DNA from: Anolis carolinensis
Taxonomy: Eukaryota
Direction of reading: 5' to 3'
DNA: 64,000 nt
NCBI RefSeq assembly: GCF_035594765.1
Contig: NC_085845.1
Location: forward strand, 30,064,024 to 30,128,023
Both the position numbers and the translations under genes were made by a program. Position 1 is the first letter of the stretch; each line of letters begins with the position of its first letter. Positions 35,729-60,775 of this stretch are shown here, in pieces. The notes under the pieces were generated by a model, which saw nothing but the letters and a program-made list of their open reading frames with translations, had not been told where the DNA came from and did not search any database.

Positions 35729-37516
35729 ATGCCTAATAGGAAGGAAATGCCTAATAGGAAGAAAAAAGTTGCCTTACCAATTGTTCAGGGCTCTCAAGAT
35801 GATAAGAAGGATTGTAAAAGAAAGAAAACATCTCCAAAGCCAGTAGGTGAATCTATCTTACTAAAACAAAGTTACTTAGAGGACTCTGCAGCTGCACGCC
35901 AAGCTCAAGCCTCAAGGACGCCTGAAGAGACAGCTATCACTTTAACCAACAGATTTGAGCCCTTGAGGGTTGGGGAGCTGACACCACTCCCTGATCAATT
36001 CCACAAGGCTCGTGATATATACCTGAGTCCTGAGAGGGAAGATCTTCAGATTCCTCAGGTTCCCCAGTCTCCTCAAGTTTTCCAGGTTTCTCGGGCCTCA
36101 GTGGATCTCCATGAGGGGACCACAAACAGCCCCGTGCGATTCCTGGATCTGAATGCGATCTTGGATCTACCGAAACCCCTGGAAGAAAATCTGAAGGGGC
36201 CAGACCGCTCAAACTGTTCGGATGATCAGAGACCTGGTCAAGATGGTGGAAGATCAGATTCAAGATTGGTGAGTCTGCTGTTTGCAGAATTCAACCAACT
36301 GGCCGATCAGCTTAATCGGTTTGGGAGATTGCTTTGCCTACTGAACCACCCATCAGCTCAATCCCTAGATTACACACAAGGGAGAACCATATGGAATTCA
36401 TTGGATCCTGACCCTCAGAATGCCAGAGACCTAGCTTGGGCTCAAAACCGGGACCACCCCATGGAGCCTTCTTCAATTCTGCGAAGAGCTTTGCTGGAAA
36501 CTGGAGAGCCATTTGAGAGTCCCATGATGAGCCAGGATGCGCTCTCGATGCCGAAGGGGGAGATTTTAGAGTCAGCTTCCCATGGCTGCTTGTTTGGTGG
36601 TCTATGCCCTCTTGATCTTGGGCCGACCAACCCATGTCCCTGGTCTGGGCAGGGACCCCCTGGGACCACCAGACAGGAAAAGGACTGGCCCTCTCTGCCT
36701 GAAATGGACGCATTGGATGTGACAGAGATCCTTGGACGGGTGCCTGTCTCTCCTTCAGTGCCCCCCTTTTGTGGAAGCCCCCAACGACGTCGCTGCCTCT
36801 CCCTGTCAAAGAGGCAAGCACCAAAGATGGCGGCTGACCTTGGGGACGCCATCGGTGAGCTCATGCCTTCTTCTCCAAACCCCAAAAAGCTTCGGCACAG
36901 GCGTGCGGGTCACACCGACTGGAGACAGAAACGCTGCCATGATATGCGCCGGACTTCTGGTGAGAAGCCAGAACAAATTATTTTTCTAGCAGAGGGAGTT
37001 CCTGGCACTTTGCAGAGTGCTGGATTGGCAGCGGGCCAAGATGGTCTGACCACAGACTCTGGAGAACCTGAAGCCCCAGACATGGACAAATATACAATGA
37101 TGGGAACCGGTAAGCCTCCAAATCGTAGGTCTCAGAGACGTGGCTGTCATCAAAAGAAATTTAAGACTAGAATCTTCTGGGGAGTAGGATTCGGTAACCG
37201 GACAAGACCTGCAACTACTCCCTTCTCCCACAAATTGGCCAATGTTCCACCAAGTGGTTCTAGATCTGTTAATATGGAGAAGGGAGCACGCCCCCAAAAC
37301 ACTAGTACCTGGGATTCGAGTATCAGAACTGTGGACATAAAAGAGAGAGTGACCTCCCGGTGTGGTGGAGTTAAGAACTTATCCCAACACTCTCGAGGGA
37401 ACCTAGACTTGACGTCCCCTAGATCACCCCCCCCCACCCACAATGCTGGCCGGGTGTTCTGGCCTTTACACCTGCCCCTCATTACTTTGAGGGCTCTATT
37501 TATGGCCACTTGGTAA
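35729..37516 (+). CDS. L2 ORF1 protein (595 aa; no domain recognised by eye)
   Basis: Long ORF directly upstream of ORF2; NRFxxL motif common in CR1/L2 ORF1. Confidence 0.75.
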   Translation: MPNRKEMPNRKKKVALPIVQGSQDDKKDCKRKKTSPKPVGESILLKQSYLEDSAAARQAQASRTPEETAITLTNRFEPLRVGELTPLPDQFHKARDIYLSPEREDLQIPQVPQSPQVFQVSRASVDLHEGTTNSPVRFLDLNAILDLPKPLEENLKGPDRSNCSDDQRPGQDGGRSDSRLVSLLFAEFNQLADQLNRFGRLLCLLNHPSAQSLDYTQGRTIWNSLDPDPQNARDLAWAQNRDHPMEPSSILRRALLETGEPFESPMMSQDALSMPKGEILESASHGCLFGGLCPLDLGPTNPCPWSGQGPPGTTRQEKDWPSLPEMDALDVTEILGRVPVSPSVPPFCGSPQRRRCLSLSKRQAPKMAADLGDAIGELMPSSPNPKKLRHRRAGHTDWRQKRCHDMRRTSGEKPEQIIFLAEGVPGTLQSAGLAAGQDGLTTDSGEPEAPDMDKYTMMGTGKPPNRRSQRRGCHQKKFKTRIFWGVGFGNRTRPATTPFSHKLANVPPSGSRSVNMEKGARPQNTSTWDSSIRTVDIKERVTSRCGGVKNLSQHSRGNLDLTSPRSPPPTHNAGRVFWPLHLPLITLRALFMATW

Positions 37517-37607
37517 TTGGCCATGCCCCACCTCCTTTTCAGGGGGCCAGTCGAACATTGGGCACCTAGTTTCTGCTGTAGAGCCCCCAAGAGAAGTAGG
37601 TCTGTGT

Positions 37608-50022: not shown

Positions 50023-53000
50023 GAGAGGAATAGGTGTGGTAGTCTTCAGGACAGACCCCCCGGCCTTAAGGTTTTGCTTCTGAATGCCAGATCTGTCAAT
50101 GGTAAGACAGCTGTTATTCAGGATTTAATCCTGGATGAGGGGGCGGATCTGGCATGCATCACCGAGACGTGGTTGGACGAGCTGGGTGGGGTGAACCTCA
50201 CTCAGTTGTGTCCACCGGGTTTTGGGGTGCATCAGCAGGCCAGGGCTGGGGGGCGGGGAGGAGGAGTCGCGGTGATCTTTCGGCAGTCCATCGCCCTGAT
50301 CAGATGTGCCGTTCCACAAACTTCGAGGTTCGAGTGTGTCTTCCTGAGGGTGGGAGCCCGAGACAGTGTGGGGATTTTGCTGGTGTACCGTCCACCCCGC
50401 GACCCAGCAGTCTCCCTGTCCGAGCTAGCAGATGTGGTCTCTAATGTGGCCCTGGCCTCCCAACAACTTATAGTTTTGGGAGACTTTAACATTCATGCCG
50501 AGACCACATTGACAGGTGCAGCTCAGGATTTCATGGTTGCCATGACGACCATGGGGCTGTCTCAAGTTATATCTGGGCCCACACATCAGGCGGGACACAT
50601 GTTGGACCTTGTTTTTATTGTGGACGGTGGAACAGTCAGAGTGGAAGAGCAAAATATTCTTCCATTGTCATGGTCTGACCATCATCTGATCTGTGTAAGT
50701 TTCGCCGTGTCTTCTAACCTCCGCAGGGGTGGTGGACCCACTAAGATGGTCCGACCCAGGAGGCTGATGGATCCGGATGGACTCCTGAGGTCTCTTGGGG
50801 ATCTTCCTGTTCTGGAGACTGGCGATCCTGTCAATGTCCTGGCTGATCGCTATAATAGTGAGCTGGCAAGGGCATTGGACATGATCGCTCCCGAACGTCC
50901 CCTCTCGTTGCGCAGAGCCACGTCGACCCCTTGGTTCACTGAGGAGCTGGCTGTGATGAAGCGTACGAGGAGGGGACTAGAGTGCATCTGGAGGAAATCT
51001 CAGGACGTGTCAGACCAAGCACGGGCTAAAGCCGCTATTAAGGCTTACTCCGTGGCTCTGCGAGCAGCCAGGAAAGCTTTCACGACTGCTCGCATAGCGT
51101 CTGCGGCCAATAGGCCAACTGAGCTGTTCCGAGTTGTGGGAGAGTTTCTGCGGCCTCCTGAGGCCCAGGGGCTCCCCTATGACTTGGCAGCCAGGTGCAG
51201 CGATTTCGCGCACCATTTTGCAGGCAAAGTTGCTCAGATACGCCGTGACTTGGACTCCAGTTTAATTGTAGTTCCAGCGGAGGTAACCGAGGTACCTGTC
51301 TGTTCGATCTTGTGGGATTCTTTCCGGCTTGTTCTTCCTGATGACGTGAAGGGGATTCTTGGGTCTGTGAGGGCGACCACTTGCGCTCTGGATCCTTGTC
51401 CCTCTTGGCTGGTTAAGCTGGCCAAAGAGGGGCTGTTGGATTGGTTTGTGACTATAATTAATGCCTCTGTGTGCCAGGGGTCAGTTCCATCCTGCTTTAA
51501 GCAGGCGGTAGTAAAACCGCTACTTAAAAAGTCCTCGTTAGACCCATCCGTATGTAACAACTACAGACCAATTTCCAACCTCCCATTTTTGGGCAAGGTT
51601 CTGGAGCGGGTGGTTGCCTCGCAGCTCCAGGGGTTCCTCGATGACACTGATTTTCTGGACCGCTCGCAGTCTGGCTTCAGGCCTGGGCACAGTACCGAGA
51701 CGGCTTTGGTCGCCTTGGTGGATGACCTCCGCAGGGAACTGGACAGGGGGAGTGTGACCCTGCTGGTTCTCCTGGACATCTCAGCGGCTTTCGATACCAT
51801 CGACCATGGTATCCTTCTGGGACGGCTGTCTGGGATGGGGCTTGGTGGCACTGTTTTGCAGTGGCTCCGGTCCTTCCTGGAGGGCCGTTCCCAGATGGTG
51901 AAGCTGGGGGACACCTGCTCGGACCCCTGGCCTTTGACCTGTGGGGTCCCGCAAGGGTCTATTCTTTCCCCCATGCTTTTCAACATCTACATGAAACCGC
52001 TGGGAGAGGTCATCCGGAGTTTTGGAGGGCGTTGCCATCTCTACGCAGATGACACGCAAATCCACTACTCGTTCCCATCTGACTCCAAGGAAGCCCCTCG
52101 GATGCTGAACCAGTGCCTGGCCGCTGTGGCGGACTGGATGAGGAGGAACAAGCTGAGGATCAATCCCGACAAGACAGAGGCCCTCCTGGTCAGTCGCTCG
52201 TCGGATCGGGGTATTGGGTGGCAACCTGTGCTGGACGGGGTTGCACTCCCCCTGAAATCACAGGTCCGCAGTTTGGGGGTCCTCCTGGATTCAGCGTTGA
52301 CGCTTGAGGCTCAGGTGTCGGCGGTGGCCGGGAGGGCTTTTGCACAACTCAAACTTGTGCGCCAACTGCGACCATACCTCGTGAAGTCTGACTTGACCAC
52401 GGTGGTGCACGCCTTAGTTACCTCTAGACTGGACTACTGTAATGCACTCTACGTGGGGCTTCCCTTGAAGACGGCCCGGAAATTACAACTAGTCCAACGC
52501 TCGGCGGCCAGATTAATAACGGGAGCGAGTTTCAGGGAGAGATCTACTCCCTTGTTTAAGGAGCTCCACTGGCTGCCGTTCATTTTCCGGTCCCAATTCA
52601 AGGTGCAGACCATCATTTATAAAGCCCTAAACGGTTTGGGACCCGCCTACCTTCGTGACCGCATCTCCTACTATAAACCTGCCCGAGCCCTTCGTTCATC
52701 TGGGGAGGCCCTCCTGTCTCCACTGCCTTTATCACAGGCCCGCCTTGTGGGAACAAGGGAGAGGGCCTTTTCTGCTGTGGCCCCCCGTTTGTGGAACTCA
52801 CTGCCCATTGAGATCAGGCTAGCCCCCACTCTTTTAGCCTTTAGGAAAGTTTTAAAAACATGGCTCTTCCGGTGTGCTTTCGGAGAGTAATTGTATATAC
52901 CTCCTGTGTTTCTCTCCCCAACATGTATTCTGTAGACCCTGTTCCCATGGTTTTATTCTTATCTCTTCTTACCCCGAGTTTTTAACCTTGTGTCCATGCG

Positions 53001-57895: not shown

Positions 57896-58168
57896 CATTC
57901 AGCTAAAACCAAAGTACAACTAAACAACAACAAAAAGCCTATTTGTACAAAAGTTTTAAAACCAATGAGACAATTTGATTAAAAATGCAATGTTAAATAA
58001 TTAAAAACTCCATTTTAAAAAAATAAAAGCACAGTCCACTTAAAAAGCTGATTCGATGTGAAGGGTAAGTATGTAACTGGCCTGCCTCAATAAAAATATC
58101 TTTCCCTGCCAGCAGAAAGAGAAAAGACCAAGGAATCTTGTAATGATATCTTATTCCTGGACTCTACC

Positions 58169-59320
58169 TGTCAAGAGTCAGATGCCAATTAGCGAACAAA
58201 AATAGTGTTTATTCAGCAGATAAGCCAAAAAGTAATGTTAACACAGAAAAAAACCTTGAAACACTTCACTATCAGTGCTTCAAGAGCAGTTCAAACAAAA
58301 ATATAATTCAGCAACACAAGCAGGTAAAAACAAAGTTAAACAAACTTAGTGCAAACTGCACTTTCTGAGTCCAAGCCCTGCCAGCCGGCTCTGTAGTTTT
58401 CAAAGGAACAGTTCCCAAAAGAAAACACCAAATTGGTCAGGAAACAAACAAACAAACAAACTAAGAATGCAGTAGACTGCTTCCACAATGTGGCTAAAGC
58501 CGAAGGCTCCAAAAGGATGGTGAAAAGACATCGTCCGGGATTCCAAGGTCAGGTCAGGAGATAACAGCGGTGTCCAAAGAGCAAGCCAGGAGTCAAAAGC
58601 CGATAGTAGTCATCAATCACAGGGCGAAGGCAGTAGCAAGGTCAAATTCCGATCCAAGGTCTGAAGAGGGTGCAATCATCCAAAACAGGTCCACGATAAG
58701 ACACAGCGAGAGCCAAGCTAGGTGATAATAGCAGATTCAAATCATAGTCCAAGTCCAGTCTTCATGGAAACACAGAGATCCCAATGGCGCCTCAGCAACA
58801 CCTTGCCACACGCAAGGTGCAGTGGCCAAACATTCCCATTTTATTCCCCTTCCTCCTGGGTGACCAAACACTCACACCCAAACACTAGGTGTCCCAAATC
58901 TACTCAGAGTCTGAGCTCCACACAGCTAGAGCTCGTGGATCTGGAGTACGTAGCAATTCGTCGGAGTCCCAATCATCCTGCCCACACTTAGCCCCATGAA
59001 CACTTAAAGAACCATCCTCCCTTCTCCAAGCATCCCAATTGGGATCAGCTCCTGCAGAAACCCCAGGTTCAGAAGTATCCATAGACCCCAAATCCCCAGA
59101 TATCTCCGGTGGCTGTGCCCATTCAGTGCCCGCTTCCCCAGCCACCACCTGTTCCTCAGCATCCATCTCCCCATCTGAATCTTCCTCAGAAGATCCCCCA
59201 TATAGCTCTCTAAGTCGCTTCCTGCGCAACTCCTCCAGTGAACCCTCATCACGAGGGTTTTTTCTTCCTCTTCGAATTCCAACCCCATCAACCATAATCC
59301 CCGAAGGCGCAGTCACAACA
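58169..59320 (-). mobile_element. Solo LTR C, 1152 bp
   Basis: Minus strand TGTTGTGACT...CTCTTGACA; TSD CTACC (58164-58168, 59321-59325); AATAAA (minus) at 58208-58213. Confidence 0.88.
58900..59319 (-). CDS. LTR C U3 open frame, 139 aa, basic NLS-like N-part and acidic remainder; homolog of the LTR D protein
   Basis: ORF-track 58900..59316; starts T|GTT at the LTR end; RRGRK.PR...SLEE..RKRLR motif shared with LTR D. Confidence 0.65.
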   Translation of the reverse strand, partial: VVTAPSGIMVDGVGIRRGRKNPRDEGSLEELRRKRLRELYGGSSEEDSDGEMDAEEQVVAGEAGTEWAQPPEISGDLGSMDTSEPGVSAGADPNWDAWRREDGSLSVHGAKCGQDDWDSDELLRTPDPRALAVWSSDSE

Positions 59321-59378
59321 CTACCTCTTCAAACTTTGGTGATCAAGTTATCATGAATCCATAAAATAATTATGTTAT

Positions 59379-60535
59379 TGTTATGGTTGAGCCTTATGGC
59401 TCCAATACTGGGAGACGTGGTCGTAAGACTCCTCGAGAGTCAGACTCTCTTGAGGAGCGAGAGAGGAAACGGCTGCGGGATATCTTTGCAGAACCATCTG
59501 ACGAAGACTCCTTTGAGGGTTTTACTGAGAGAATGGAGGAAGAGGTGGTTAGCTCAGAGGAGGATGACATGGAATGGACTCGTGTGAGGGAGGATTTGGG
59601 TGTTCTTGGTAATGATAGCATGGGAAGCGACTGGCGGGTTGCAGGATCGGACCCGTGGACGAGTTGGAGGGATGGGACGGGATCCACAGCTGGGGATGCT
59701 GTGGGGCGTAGTCAAAGATGTTTTCGTTCTGATGAGGATGATGATGATGAGGCACCTGGAATTAGGGTAACACCTGATAGTGATGAGGAGTTGTAACTGG
59801 CATAAAATGGGGTCTTGAATCCAGGGCTAATTGCGTTGGGCAAGGTAATCTGGACGGACGCTTGGGATCTTGTTTGGGAAAATCCTGAAGACGGGTGTGT
59901 TTCGTTTGCTGAATACGTAAGTTACCAAGGACACTGGGCATAGGCGGCGGGAGGAACTGTGTGGGCTTTTGTTGTGCAACCTGTGTTTAATCTTATTAGC
60001 TTGGACCTCCGTCGTCTTCTTGACGGACATTATTTACCTACTCGGAATTGACGCTGGACTGGCTGACTGACTACGACCTGGGACTACCCTTTCTTGACTA
60101 TCGTTGGAATTCGTGGAATCTAAGACGCCTGCACCTGGTAATCGACCTCGGACCGGATTGGGACCCCGCTGACGCTGCAACCCTTGATTGATGTGTTTGG
60201 ACCCGGAGTTCGCCCGCTGCACGGAGGAGTAACAACTTAGTTGCTCAACCACAGCTGTTGAGTAGCAGAGAGGAATCTGCTGCCAGTATTTATGTTCTAT
60301 TGAATCTTTGTTTACTAGCTTTTGTTTGTTTATAGTCCCAGGCTGAAGTAAGCATTTTTGGTTTAACCCGGATTAAACTCCTGTTTAATCTGGTTTATCT
60401 TTTGAACCATTTTTGAGTGACTTTTCATATTGAAGGCGAGTGTTTGCCTAGCTCTTTGTTTTTTACGAGCATTTTTGGTTCTGTATCTTTAATAAACTGT
60501 GTTGAATCTTATCTACTGGCGTTCTGTCCTTGACA
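59379..60535 (+). mobile_element. Solo LTR D, 1157 bp
   Basis: TGTTATGG...CCTTGACA; TSD GTTAT (59374-59378, 60536-60540); CATAAAA at ~59801; AATAAA at ~60491. Confidence 0.88.
59380..59796 (+). CDS. LTR D U3 open frame, 138 aa, with helix-acidic-FxGF (TIM/IBM-like) motif
   Basis: ORF-track 59383..59796; LRDIFAEPSDEDSFEGF at 59473-59523. Confidence 0.65.
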   Translation, partial: VMVEPYGSNTGRRGRKTPRESDSLEERERKRLRDIFAEPSDEDSFEGFTERMEEEVVSSEEDDMEWTRVREDLGVLGNDSMGSDWRVAGSDPWTSWRDGTGSTAGDAVGRSQRCFRSDEDDDDEAPGIRVTPDSDEEL

Positions 60536-60775
60536 GTTATACTTCACATCTTCATTATTATATGCCTTCTACTATTATGTTCCTCATGTTCAATAAAATC
60601 TGGGGAGGAAGAAAAGGGAGACAGGGGGAGCAAAACCTTTCACAGGAGGAAATTCCAGAACCTGAGAACAGCCACTGTGTCCACACCAAACATTCACAAA
60701 AACATTCACAGATCTGTCAAAATCTTCAAGCAAACAGAAATAGGTTTTCACCAACCATATGCAATAGATTAAGGC

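Follow-up and report, generated by a model that had tools for sequence, protein, structure and literature searches.

We examined a 64,000-bp stretch of the Anolis carolinensis genome (contig NC_085845.1, positions 30,064,024 to 30,128,023 of the forward strand; here referred to as the window), in which two solo long terminal repeats (LTRs), denoted C and D, lie back to back with 58 bp between them. Both are solo LTRs of Tf1/Sushi-type Ty3/Gypsy retrotransposons, and each contains an open reading frame (ORF) that starts from LTR nucleotide 2. In full-length elements, the ORFs of C and D extend the C-terminus of Pol/integrase in frame and are read from the 3′ LTR, and we hold it very nearly certain that they are an integrase tail rather than a free-standing gene. 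In family D and in a third family, E, which was found by profile search, the tail carries a short motif resembling those by which host proteins bind LEDGF and HRP2. Motif likeness and a modelled complex suggest that the D-type tail probably binds domains of the LEDGF/HRP2 type.

The LTR ORFs continue the integrase frame

Both LTRs are young and of high copy number, with D being an independent insertion. For family C, 40 of 1189 candidate copies were scored and all were about 99% identical over the ORF, while the 40 scored among the 2473 candidates of family D were all at 98–100%; the paired LTRs of six full-length copies are 98.8–99.5% identical. Full-length copies are Ty3/Gypsy elements with gag followed by the pol frame. 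The gag-like ORF of a full-length copy, read by eye, has a CCHC knuckle, and the Pfam domains of pol in L067 and L068 follow the order protease, reverse transcriptase (RT), RNase H, integrase and SH3 (Tf2-type SH3); the chromodomain PF00385 was not found by Pfam at E ≤ 1 in either of these two pol frames. The polypurine tract and the LTR come about 30 residues after the SH3 domain, and these residues form a low-complexity linker between the SH3 domain and the tail. The unbroken pol, of 1212 codons in L067 and 1211 in L068, runs over the polypurine tract into the 3′ LTR, where the D tail forms its end.

Exact junctions between polypurine tract and LTR numbered 1446 genome-wide, and a control pattern gave none. 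Among 39 distinct junction copies, the HPVFH end of integrase was in frame with the LTR in 37, the full-length tail was present in 34 and the flank of about 500 codons was wholly open in 27. For C, the SH3 end of integrase was in frame with the LTR in 4 of 5 junction copies and the full tail was found in 2; unbroken pol was not seen among these five. Database models from Anolis carolinensis (P0001 and P0137) already join pol and tail, without comment. In addition, three D-type junctions (L083–L085; G000:C1:26.75-26.76 Mb) lie 5205 bp apart in a tandem array sharing LTRs, and a database gene model, P0134, joins the end of ORF2 of a long interspersed nuclear element (LINE) to a D-type LTR tail, probably through an annotation join or read-through.

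From the position of the putative transcript start, the ORF would take up U3, and only the 3′ end of the genomic RNA would carry it. Self-priming, judged here by sequence complementarity, is known for Tf1/Sushi elements (PMC6317226; for this and the other papers cited by PMC number, our statements rest on the accessible portions of the text). The primer-binding site after the 5′ LTR has a complement within the LTR, which matches at 11/11 positions in all three full-length copies of D (next-best site, 8/11), and in C at 11/11 with copy L064 and 10/11 with L065; between C and D, the primer-binding site and its complement change together. A TATA-like box lies 31–32 nt upstream of each complement site, right after the ORF stop, in both families. 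With the predicted start downstream of the ORF, the promoter of a solo LTR would not transcribe the ORF, which would be carried in U3 only at the 3′ end of the RNA. A long ORF in a solo LTR can be an integrase tail which the promoter of that LTR would not transcribe, a warning for annotators. In Sushi LTRs the poly(A) signal is found close to the 3′ end, where C and D have their candidate signals, and the term ORF is absent from the accessible text describing these LTRs (PMC3601003). No splice into the tail start was found among 15 of 17 joints, taken from contigs on one element in four sequencing runs of guessed type, which show presence and not transcription.

Conservation and selection on the tail

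The initial annotation had proposed that the C and D proteins are homologous along their length, and the comparison bears this out: BLASTP aligned them at 39% identity over 125 columns (E 2e-12), and their Smith-Waterman score of 164 exceeds anything reached in 2000 shuffles (mean 39, maximum 83). The near-equal ORF lengths it gave (139 codons in C and 138 in D) are right, and the shared motifs it listed are all present in C and D, with FxGF missing from C. Its statement that the LTR DNA is not obviously alignable holds for blastn, which finds no alignment (best E 0.57), but a sensitive local alignment detects weak homology, both within the ORF (score 125, against at most 84 in shuffles) and in the remainder of the LTR (score 164, against at most 115.5). 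Identity by codon position was 0.54/0.50/0.33 over 131 codons, and fourfold sites match at 5 of 21, so that third positions do not show the equal identity which had been named as a sign of plain DNA descent; the codon alignment was protein-guided, which favours positions 1 and 2.

The suggested protein-level constraint is supported by ratios of nonsynonymous to synonymous change (dN/dS) far below 1, both among D subfamilies and in shared variants. For the tail, dN/dS was 0.17–0.25 in all nine D-subfamily pairs, every bootstrap upper limit being below 0.5, and for integrase it was 0.02–0.05. Gaps in the tail keep the frame across the D subfamilies, and the rest of the LTR has many gaps of 1–2 nt. 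Variants common to at least two 3′ LTR copies gave a dN/dS of 0.22 (55 synonymous, 42 nonsynonymous). In the old family E, stops were found in 13/27 copies and frameshifts in 9/27, and dN/dS was 0.72 for private changes against 0.40 for shared variants (Fisher p 0.02). Selection thus acts on the element and not on solo copies. The corresponding contrast in D (0.38 private, 0.28 shared) was not significant and is uninformative, because sample-private changes include source lineages; C had only 4 variants. Synonymous divergence was lower in the tail (0.21–0.86) than in integrase (0.45–2.3), so that the U3 DNA is itself somewhat constrained.

As for the claim of a real uncharacterised protein family, the tail indeed has no Pfam family, but it is not a free-standing protein, since it is in frame with Pol/integrase. 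The conserved tryptophan motifs ascribed to it are present, but the arrangement of helix, acidic linker and FxGF is more telling. A Pfam search with the four LTR ORFs of the window returned no family, and an ESM Atlas search gave no usable match. A profile of nine tails run against 1.84 billion representatives found three matches, two of them from Anolis carolinensis; these do not confine the tail family to one species, because transposon ORFs are seldom annotated.

A motif like those of LEDGF partners in families D and E

The D tail contains the motif LRDIF-x8-FEGF. Motifs that interact with TFIIS N-terminal domains (TNDs) consist of a helix, an acidic linker of 8–16 residues and an optional FxGF, which is present in all known LEDGF and HRP2 partners and needed for binding to LEDGF/HRP2, according to PMC9987994. 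In D, as in all three repeats of E, the linker has 8 residues, with an S-D-E-D site of the CK2 type. Both Phe and the Gly are kept in 56/56 D copies, some of which are paired LTRs of one element, and two synonymous codons are in use for each of these residues. The helix, which in such motifs is amphipathic with aliphatic or Phe anchors, is predicted from a residue pattern like that of the host motifs, the complex prediction having yielded no interface. The motif pattern occurred in 3 of 100,000 shuffles of D. Family E has three motif matches, and none of 100,000 shuffles gave more than one.

In family E the LTR frame lacks an early ATG at the LTR edge; at two of three true junctions (L176 and L178) it is entered from integrase. 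Its three motif repeats have the same spacing as D, and all three FxGF are kept in 23 of 30 old copies. In the alignment, C keeps the basic helix and the acidic linker without FxGF. One D-type copy, L078, has lost 54 tail codons, the linker and FxGF among them, by an in-frame deletion, while 507 upstream codons are open.

The host has two PF10497 loci, and in the 80 kb lying upstream of them a loose pattern gave four matches: two at one locus, one at the other and one apparently due to chance. In matches one and three the F-x8-FxGF spacing equals that of D, and a tblastn search of this DNA with the D tail placed the two at the top (E 0.007 and 0.022). JPO2 M1, as present in the LEDGF complex PDB 6emo, is matched by one host motif (E 0.00028), and that PF10497 locus is therefore assigned to CDCA7L; the second locus we take to be CDCA7. 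Of its 17 residues, the D motif of the window has 9 in common with the host motif and with JPO2 M1; in another D subfamily the figure is 11. Beyond the 17-residue motif no likeness of D to CDCA7 or CDCA7L was found in DNA or protein (13–20 of 60 nt identical downstream), and capture and convergence can therefore not be told apart.

We also predicted the complex of the D motif (residues 18–66) with the lizard PSIP1 domain (P0014, 400–500). It scored 0.42 compared with 0.01 for the best control, with a predicted local distance difference test value of at least 54 for the partner and agreement between runs in at least 80% of contacts, and its verdict was 'weak support'. In the benchmark for this prediction, 51 of 78 solved pairs passed the mark, as did 2 of 108 mismatched pairs. 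The genome also holds an intronless PSIP1/LEDGF retrocopy (L100:1501-1980; G000:C2:143.72 Mb) with a stop inside the integrase-binding domain.

Family relations and the missing chromodomain

The integrase tree comprised 22 rows, none of which was dropped, and included chromodomain-bearing relatives and one tail-less family; it had no non-chromovirus outgroup and is unrooted. C, D and E form one clade on it (100/100), and C and D are grouped at 84/80, which makes the loss of FxGF by C likely without making it firm. Chromodomains are carried by families G and H and by five database relatives, the best relatives of the SH3 region carry PF00385, and all groups on the tree outside C/D/E have a chromodomain except family F, which stops shortly after SH3 and has neither a chromodomain nor a tail. 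On these sequence characters, we file C/D/E as a putative chromodomain-less offshoot of the Tf1/Sushi-group chromoviruses.

Family G has a chromodomain together with read-through over the same GDS|V junction into U3, and we therefore infer that U3 read-through preceded or paralleled chromodomain loss. In G (L186, L190–L192 and L216), pol continues for about 85–100 codons past the edge of the 3′ LTR, its end being RRSARIAA or RRSLRIAA, which resembles the nucleosome-binding (acidic-patch) motif RRSARLSA of HMGN (PMC12487698). Family F (L117–L145) is young, with single frames of 1553–1601 codons; its stop is followed by a pyrimidine tract and an AG that resemble a splice acceptor, just before the purine tract.

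A proposed role in integration and its alternatives

We lean, if only slightly, towards the view that the D-type tail tethers integration to transcribed chromatin through LEDGF/PSIP1 or HRP2. Under this proposal, the ancestor of C, D and E would have lost its chromodomain; genomic RNA would start downstream of the ORF, only the 3′ LTR copy would be translated, and solo LTRs would be by-products. The tail would stay on mature integrase, where its helix and FxGF would dock in two pockets of the LEDGF/HRP2 domain (TFIIS-N-terminal-type), perhaps more strongly upon CK2-type phosphorylation of the linker, and the PWWP domain of the LEDGF/HRP2-type reader would carry the complex to H3K36-methylated gene bodies. 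The C tail, which has no FxGF, would bind another TFIIS-N-type domain or none. In its widest form, which we offer tentatively and rate a little short of even, the lineage would have swapped a heterochromatin-reading chromodomain for one to three LTR-encoded host TND-interacting motifs, hijacking LEDGF/HRP2 to enter active gene bodies, so that mimicry of a linear motif would have led it, on its own, to the lentiviral strategy. An HMGN-like nucleosome-binding motif occupies the same place in other lizard families, which would make U3 a cassette in which chromatin tethers are exchanged.

A number of observations weigh against this proposal. The pattern used for the shuffles was written after the motif had been seen, and it has one chance match in the six frames of the window. 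In PDB searches, the D tail alone gave no match to 6emo at E ≤ 10 and the E tail gave no LEDGF complex, with only chance-level matches in both cases. Benchmark passes at or below 0.60 came from 5 of the 78 solved pairs and all 4 passing mismatches, the benchmark left out peptides, disordered chains and host-pathogen pairs, and a pass may reflect likeness or structures already known to the predictor because similar complexes have been solved (6emo, 5yi9 and 6emr). C has spread to many near-identical copies without FxGF, and family F, with neither tail nor chromodomain, has many open copies, so the motif is dispensable for transposition. The basic patch, the tryptophan motifs and the acidic end are conserved yet not explained by the motif, and the place of C/D/E among the chromodomain-bearing groups is unsettled on the backbone of the integrase tree. 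Lastly, no excess of insertions was found off the six largest contigs, where 15.3% would be expected (D 5/40, C 1/40), and family E is depleted there (10/150, p 0.002), with tail-less F at 22/150. These counts were made by hand on best-hit samples and probe insertion preference by contig class only. Microchromosomes are gene-dense. Along the first 129 Mb of contig C1, junction density equals the genome mean (0.77 and 0.78 per Mb).

The absence of chromosome-scale insertion bias would fit a tail in Pol that binds a TFIIS-N-type domain for some purpose other than site choice, either holding integrase on chromatin or in the nucleus, or acting as a protease-cut accessory factor in elongation or silencing. 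This draws on the same motif evidence, TFIIS-N-type host domains serve elongation broadly (PMC9987994), and the low-complexity linker of about 30 residues sets the tail apart from SH3. We nevertheless consider it unlikely, at roughly one chance in a handful, as the tail ends the integrase frame just past the position of the relatives' chromodomain and C-terminal targeting modules of integrase are documented in Ty1 (PMC7459421) and CRM (PMC3059260).

Less likely again is a selected but generic integrase extension, made up of a nuclear localisation signal and an acidic disordered region, in which the likeness to FxGF would be incidental. The basic patch and acidic runs are the best-shared parts of C and D, C is without FxGF, the complex prediction is weak and the PDB searches with the tails missed the LEDGF complexes, all of which would fit; against it stand the exact F-x8-FxGF spacing in common with two host motifs, the 11/17 identities in one D subfamily, the three repeats of E with all three FxGF in 23/30 old copies, and the invariant Phe with synonymous codon changes.

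There is little room for the idea that the ORF is mainly a free-standing LTR gene which, in the manner of separate accessory ORFs in other LTR elements, would be translated from an ATG of its own on an RNA that is either spliced or begun upstream. An ATG does occur at LTR position 5 in D and at codon 9 in C, the database protein P0133 starts at that ATG, and gene model P0134 joins the tail to a LINE fragment. However, three related families are in frame with integrase with no stop between, family E lacks an early ATG, the TATA-like box and predicted start lie downstream of the ORF stop, and old solo LTRs decay, as seen in the stops, frameshifts and private dN/dS (0.72, shared 0.40) of family E. 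Finally, open frames that are neutral and persist through plain DNA descent or U3 enhancer constraint, which the lower synonymous divergence of the tail relative to integrase and the weakly alignable non-coding LTR of C and D might suggest, are very improbable, as divergence is greatest at third positions, gap-free comparisons put dN/dS far below 1, and indels keep the frame in the tail and not in the rest of the LTR.

Features of the two LTRs and other elements of the window

The coordinates of the two LTRs and of their parts are listed in Table 1.

Table 1. Solo LTRs C and D of the window and their observed or predicted parts (positions within the window)
Feature	Position	Strand	Remarks
Solo LTR, family C	58169..59320	minus	1152 bp, TG...CA ends
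Target-site duplication flanking solo LTR C	58164-58168 and 59321-59325		5 bp
U3-encoded integrase tail, family C	58900..59319	minus	139 codons and stop; 131 from first ATG
C predicted helix and acidic linker without FxGF	59164..59214	minus	degenerate or FxGF-less motif; from alignment
C TATA-like AATAAA	58840..58845	minus	32 nt upstream of predicted transcript start; putative function
C 11-nt complement of primer-binding site (predicted transcript start)	58803..58813	minus	downstream of ORF stop
C AATAAA, candidate poly(A) signal	58208..58213	minus	near LTR 3′ end; putative function
Solo LTR, family D	59379..60535	plus	1157 bp, TG...CA ends
Target-site duplication flanking solo LTR D	59374-59378 and 60536-60540		5 bp
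U3-encoded integrase tail, family D	59380..59796	plus	138 codons and stop; 137 from ATG
D basic patch RRGRKTPR	59413..59436	plus	common to C; possible nuclear localisation signal
D motif like TND-interacting motifs, LRDIFAEPSDEDSFEGF	59473..59523	plus	predicted helix, 8-residue acidic linker and FxGF
D TATA-like ATAAAA	59802..59807	plus	31 nt upstream of predicted transcript start; putative function
D 11-nt complement of primer-binding site (predicted transcript start)	59833..59843	plus	37 nt past ORF stop
D AATAAA, candidate poly(A) signal	60491..60496	plus	putative function

Two further solo LTRs in the window, at 6666-6100 (567 bp) and 17072-16415 (658 bp), both on the minus strand and with 5-bp duplications, have acidic ORFs of 87 and 121 codons, respectively, which start from LTR nucleotide 2. 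These end in basic motifs of the RS/RRS-x-R type like the family G tail, and are probably integrase tails of other families, although a search for junction copies returned none. For LTR B of the window, an internal-LTR junction was not found in 12 loci examined of its 65 matches. Of these matches, 23 are off the six largest contigs compared with 15% expected (p 8e-5), 9 of them on C14, a bias opposite to that of families C and E. Long LINE-type ORFs were recognised by eye at 35729-40566, 40982-41692, 43703-44389 and 50533-52890, including an ORF of 595 aa upstream of an 866-aa endonuclease-RT ORF. A tandem array of about 3 kb with an 84-bp period (L212:110-3087) lies upstream of a family E element.

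Comparison with known systems

The choice of insertion sites by vertebrate Ty3/Gypsy elements has so far been largely inferred from chromodomains, to which the present lineage offers an alternative that is specific and testable, namely a motif of 17 residues for which the host partner is named and complexes have been solved. It also provides natural controls within one genome, namely families with three motifs, one motif, no FxGF, a chromodomain or no tail. We found no report of this integrase tail or of a transposon-borne motif of the LEDGF type in the openly accessible literature (listings and abstract starts, with Repbase, Dfam and most subscription journals outside the search). A 2009 paper reportedly describes a chromodomain-bearing Anolis Gypsy element.

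[quoted passage not shown] C/D/E differ from G and H in having no chromodomain, and the tail of G is a different sequence ending in RRSxRIA.

In plants, pol of CRM group A (CR motif, CHDCR) also extends into the 3′ LTR (PMC3059260, PMC6317226), and this LTR-encoded tail likewise stands in place of a lost chromodomain and was proposed as a targeting domain (PMC3059260). CRM group A has a tRNA-Met primer site, whereas the primer site of C and D is complementary to their own LTR, and C/D/E are for this reason an analogue and not a member of the group. They belong to a vertebrate, Tf1/Sushi-type self-priming lineage whose tail has no Pfam match. Moreover, CRM elements are centromeric and the partner of CR is given as unidentified in the accessible text, whereas the motif in the present lineage predicts a named host partner and gene bodies.

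The host TND-interacting motifs of CDCA7L/JPO2, CDCA7, IWS1, KMT2A and POGZ likewise have a helix, an acidic Ser-rich linker and FxGF (PMC9987994), and solved complexes of such motifs are PDB 6emo, 5yi9, 6emr, 6emq and 6emp. D has the spacing of JPO2 M1 and of the host CDCA7-family motifs (8-residue linker), with 9–11 identities in 17, but its motif sits on the integrase of a mobile element and its binding is predicted. Short integrase motifs with host partners, as proposed for D, are described near the C-terminus for Ty1-AC40 (PMC7459421) and for MLV-BET (murine leukaemia virus; PMC4027182), the partners being host chromatin or transcription proteins. The motifs of Ty1, MLV and Ty5 have other partners and sequences and were shown experimentally, whereas that of D is predicted. 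Ty5-Sir4 is a further case of a short C-terminal targeting motif in integrase.

Lentiviruses differ from D in that they are another element family. Lentiviral integrase binds LEDGF/HRP2 through folded domains and is not known to do so through a host-type linear motif in an LTR-encoded tail. The predicted host domain of D and the outcome, integration in transcribed gene bodies, would be the same as in lentiviral tethering by LEDGF/HRP2 (PMC9987994). Should the binding hold, a mobile element would be imitating TND-interacting motifs and would have a way to LEDGF tethering that is independent of the lentiviral one.

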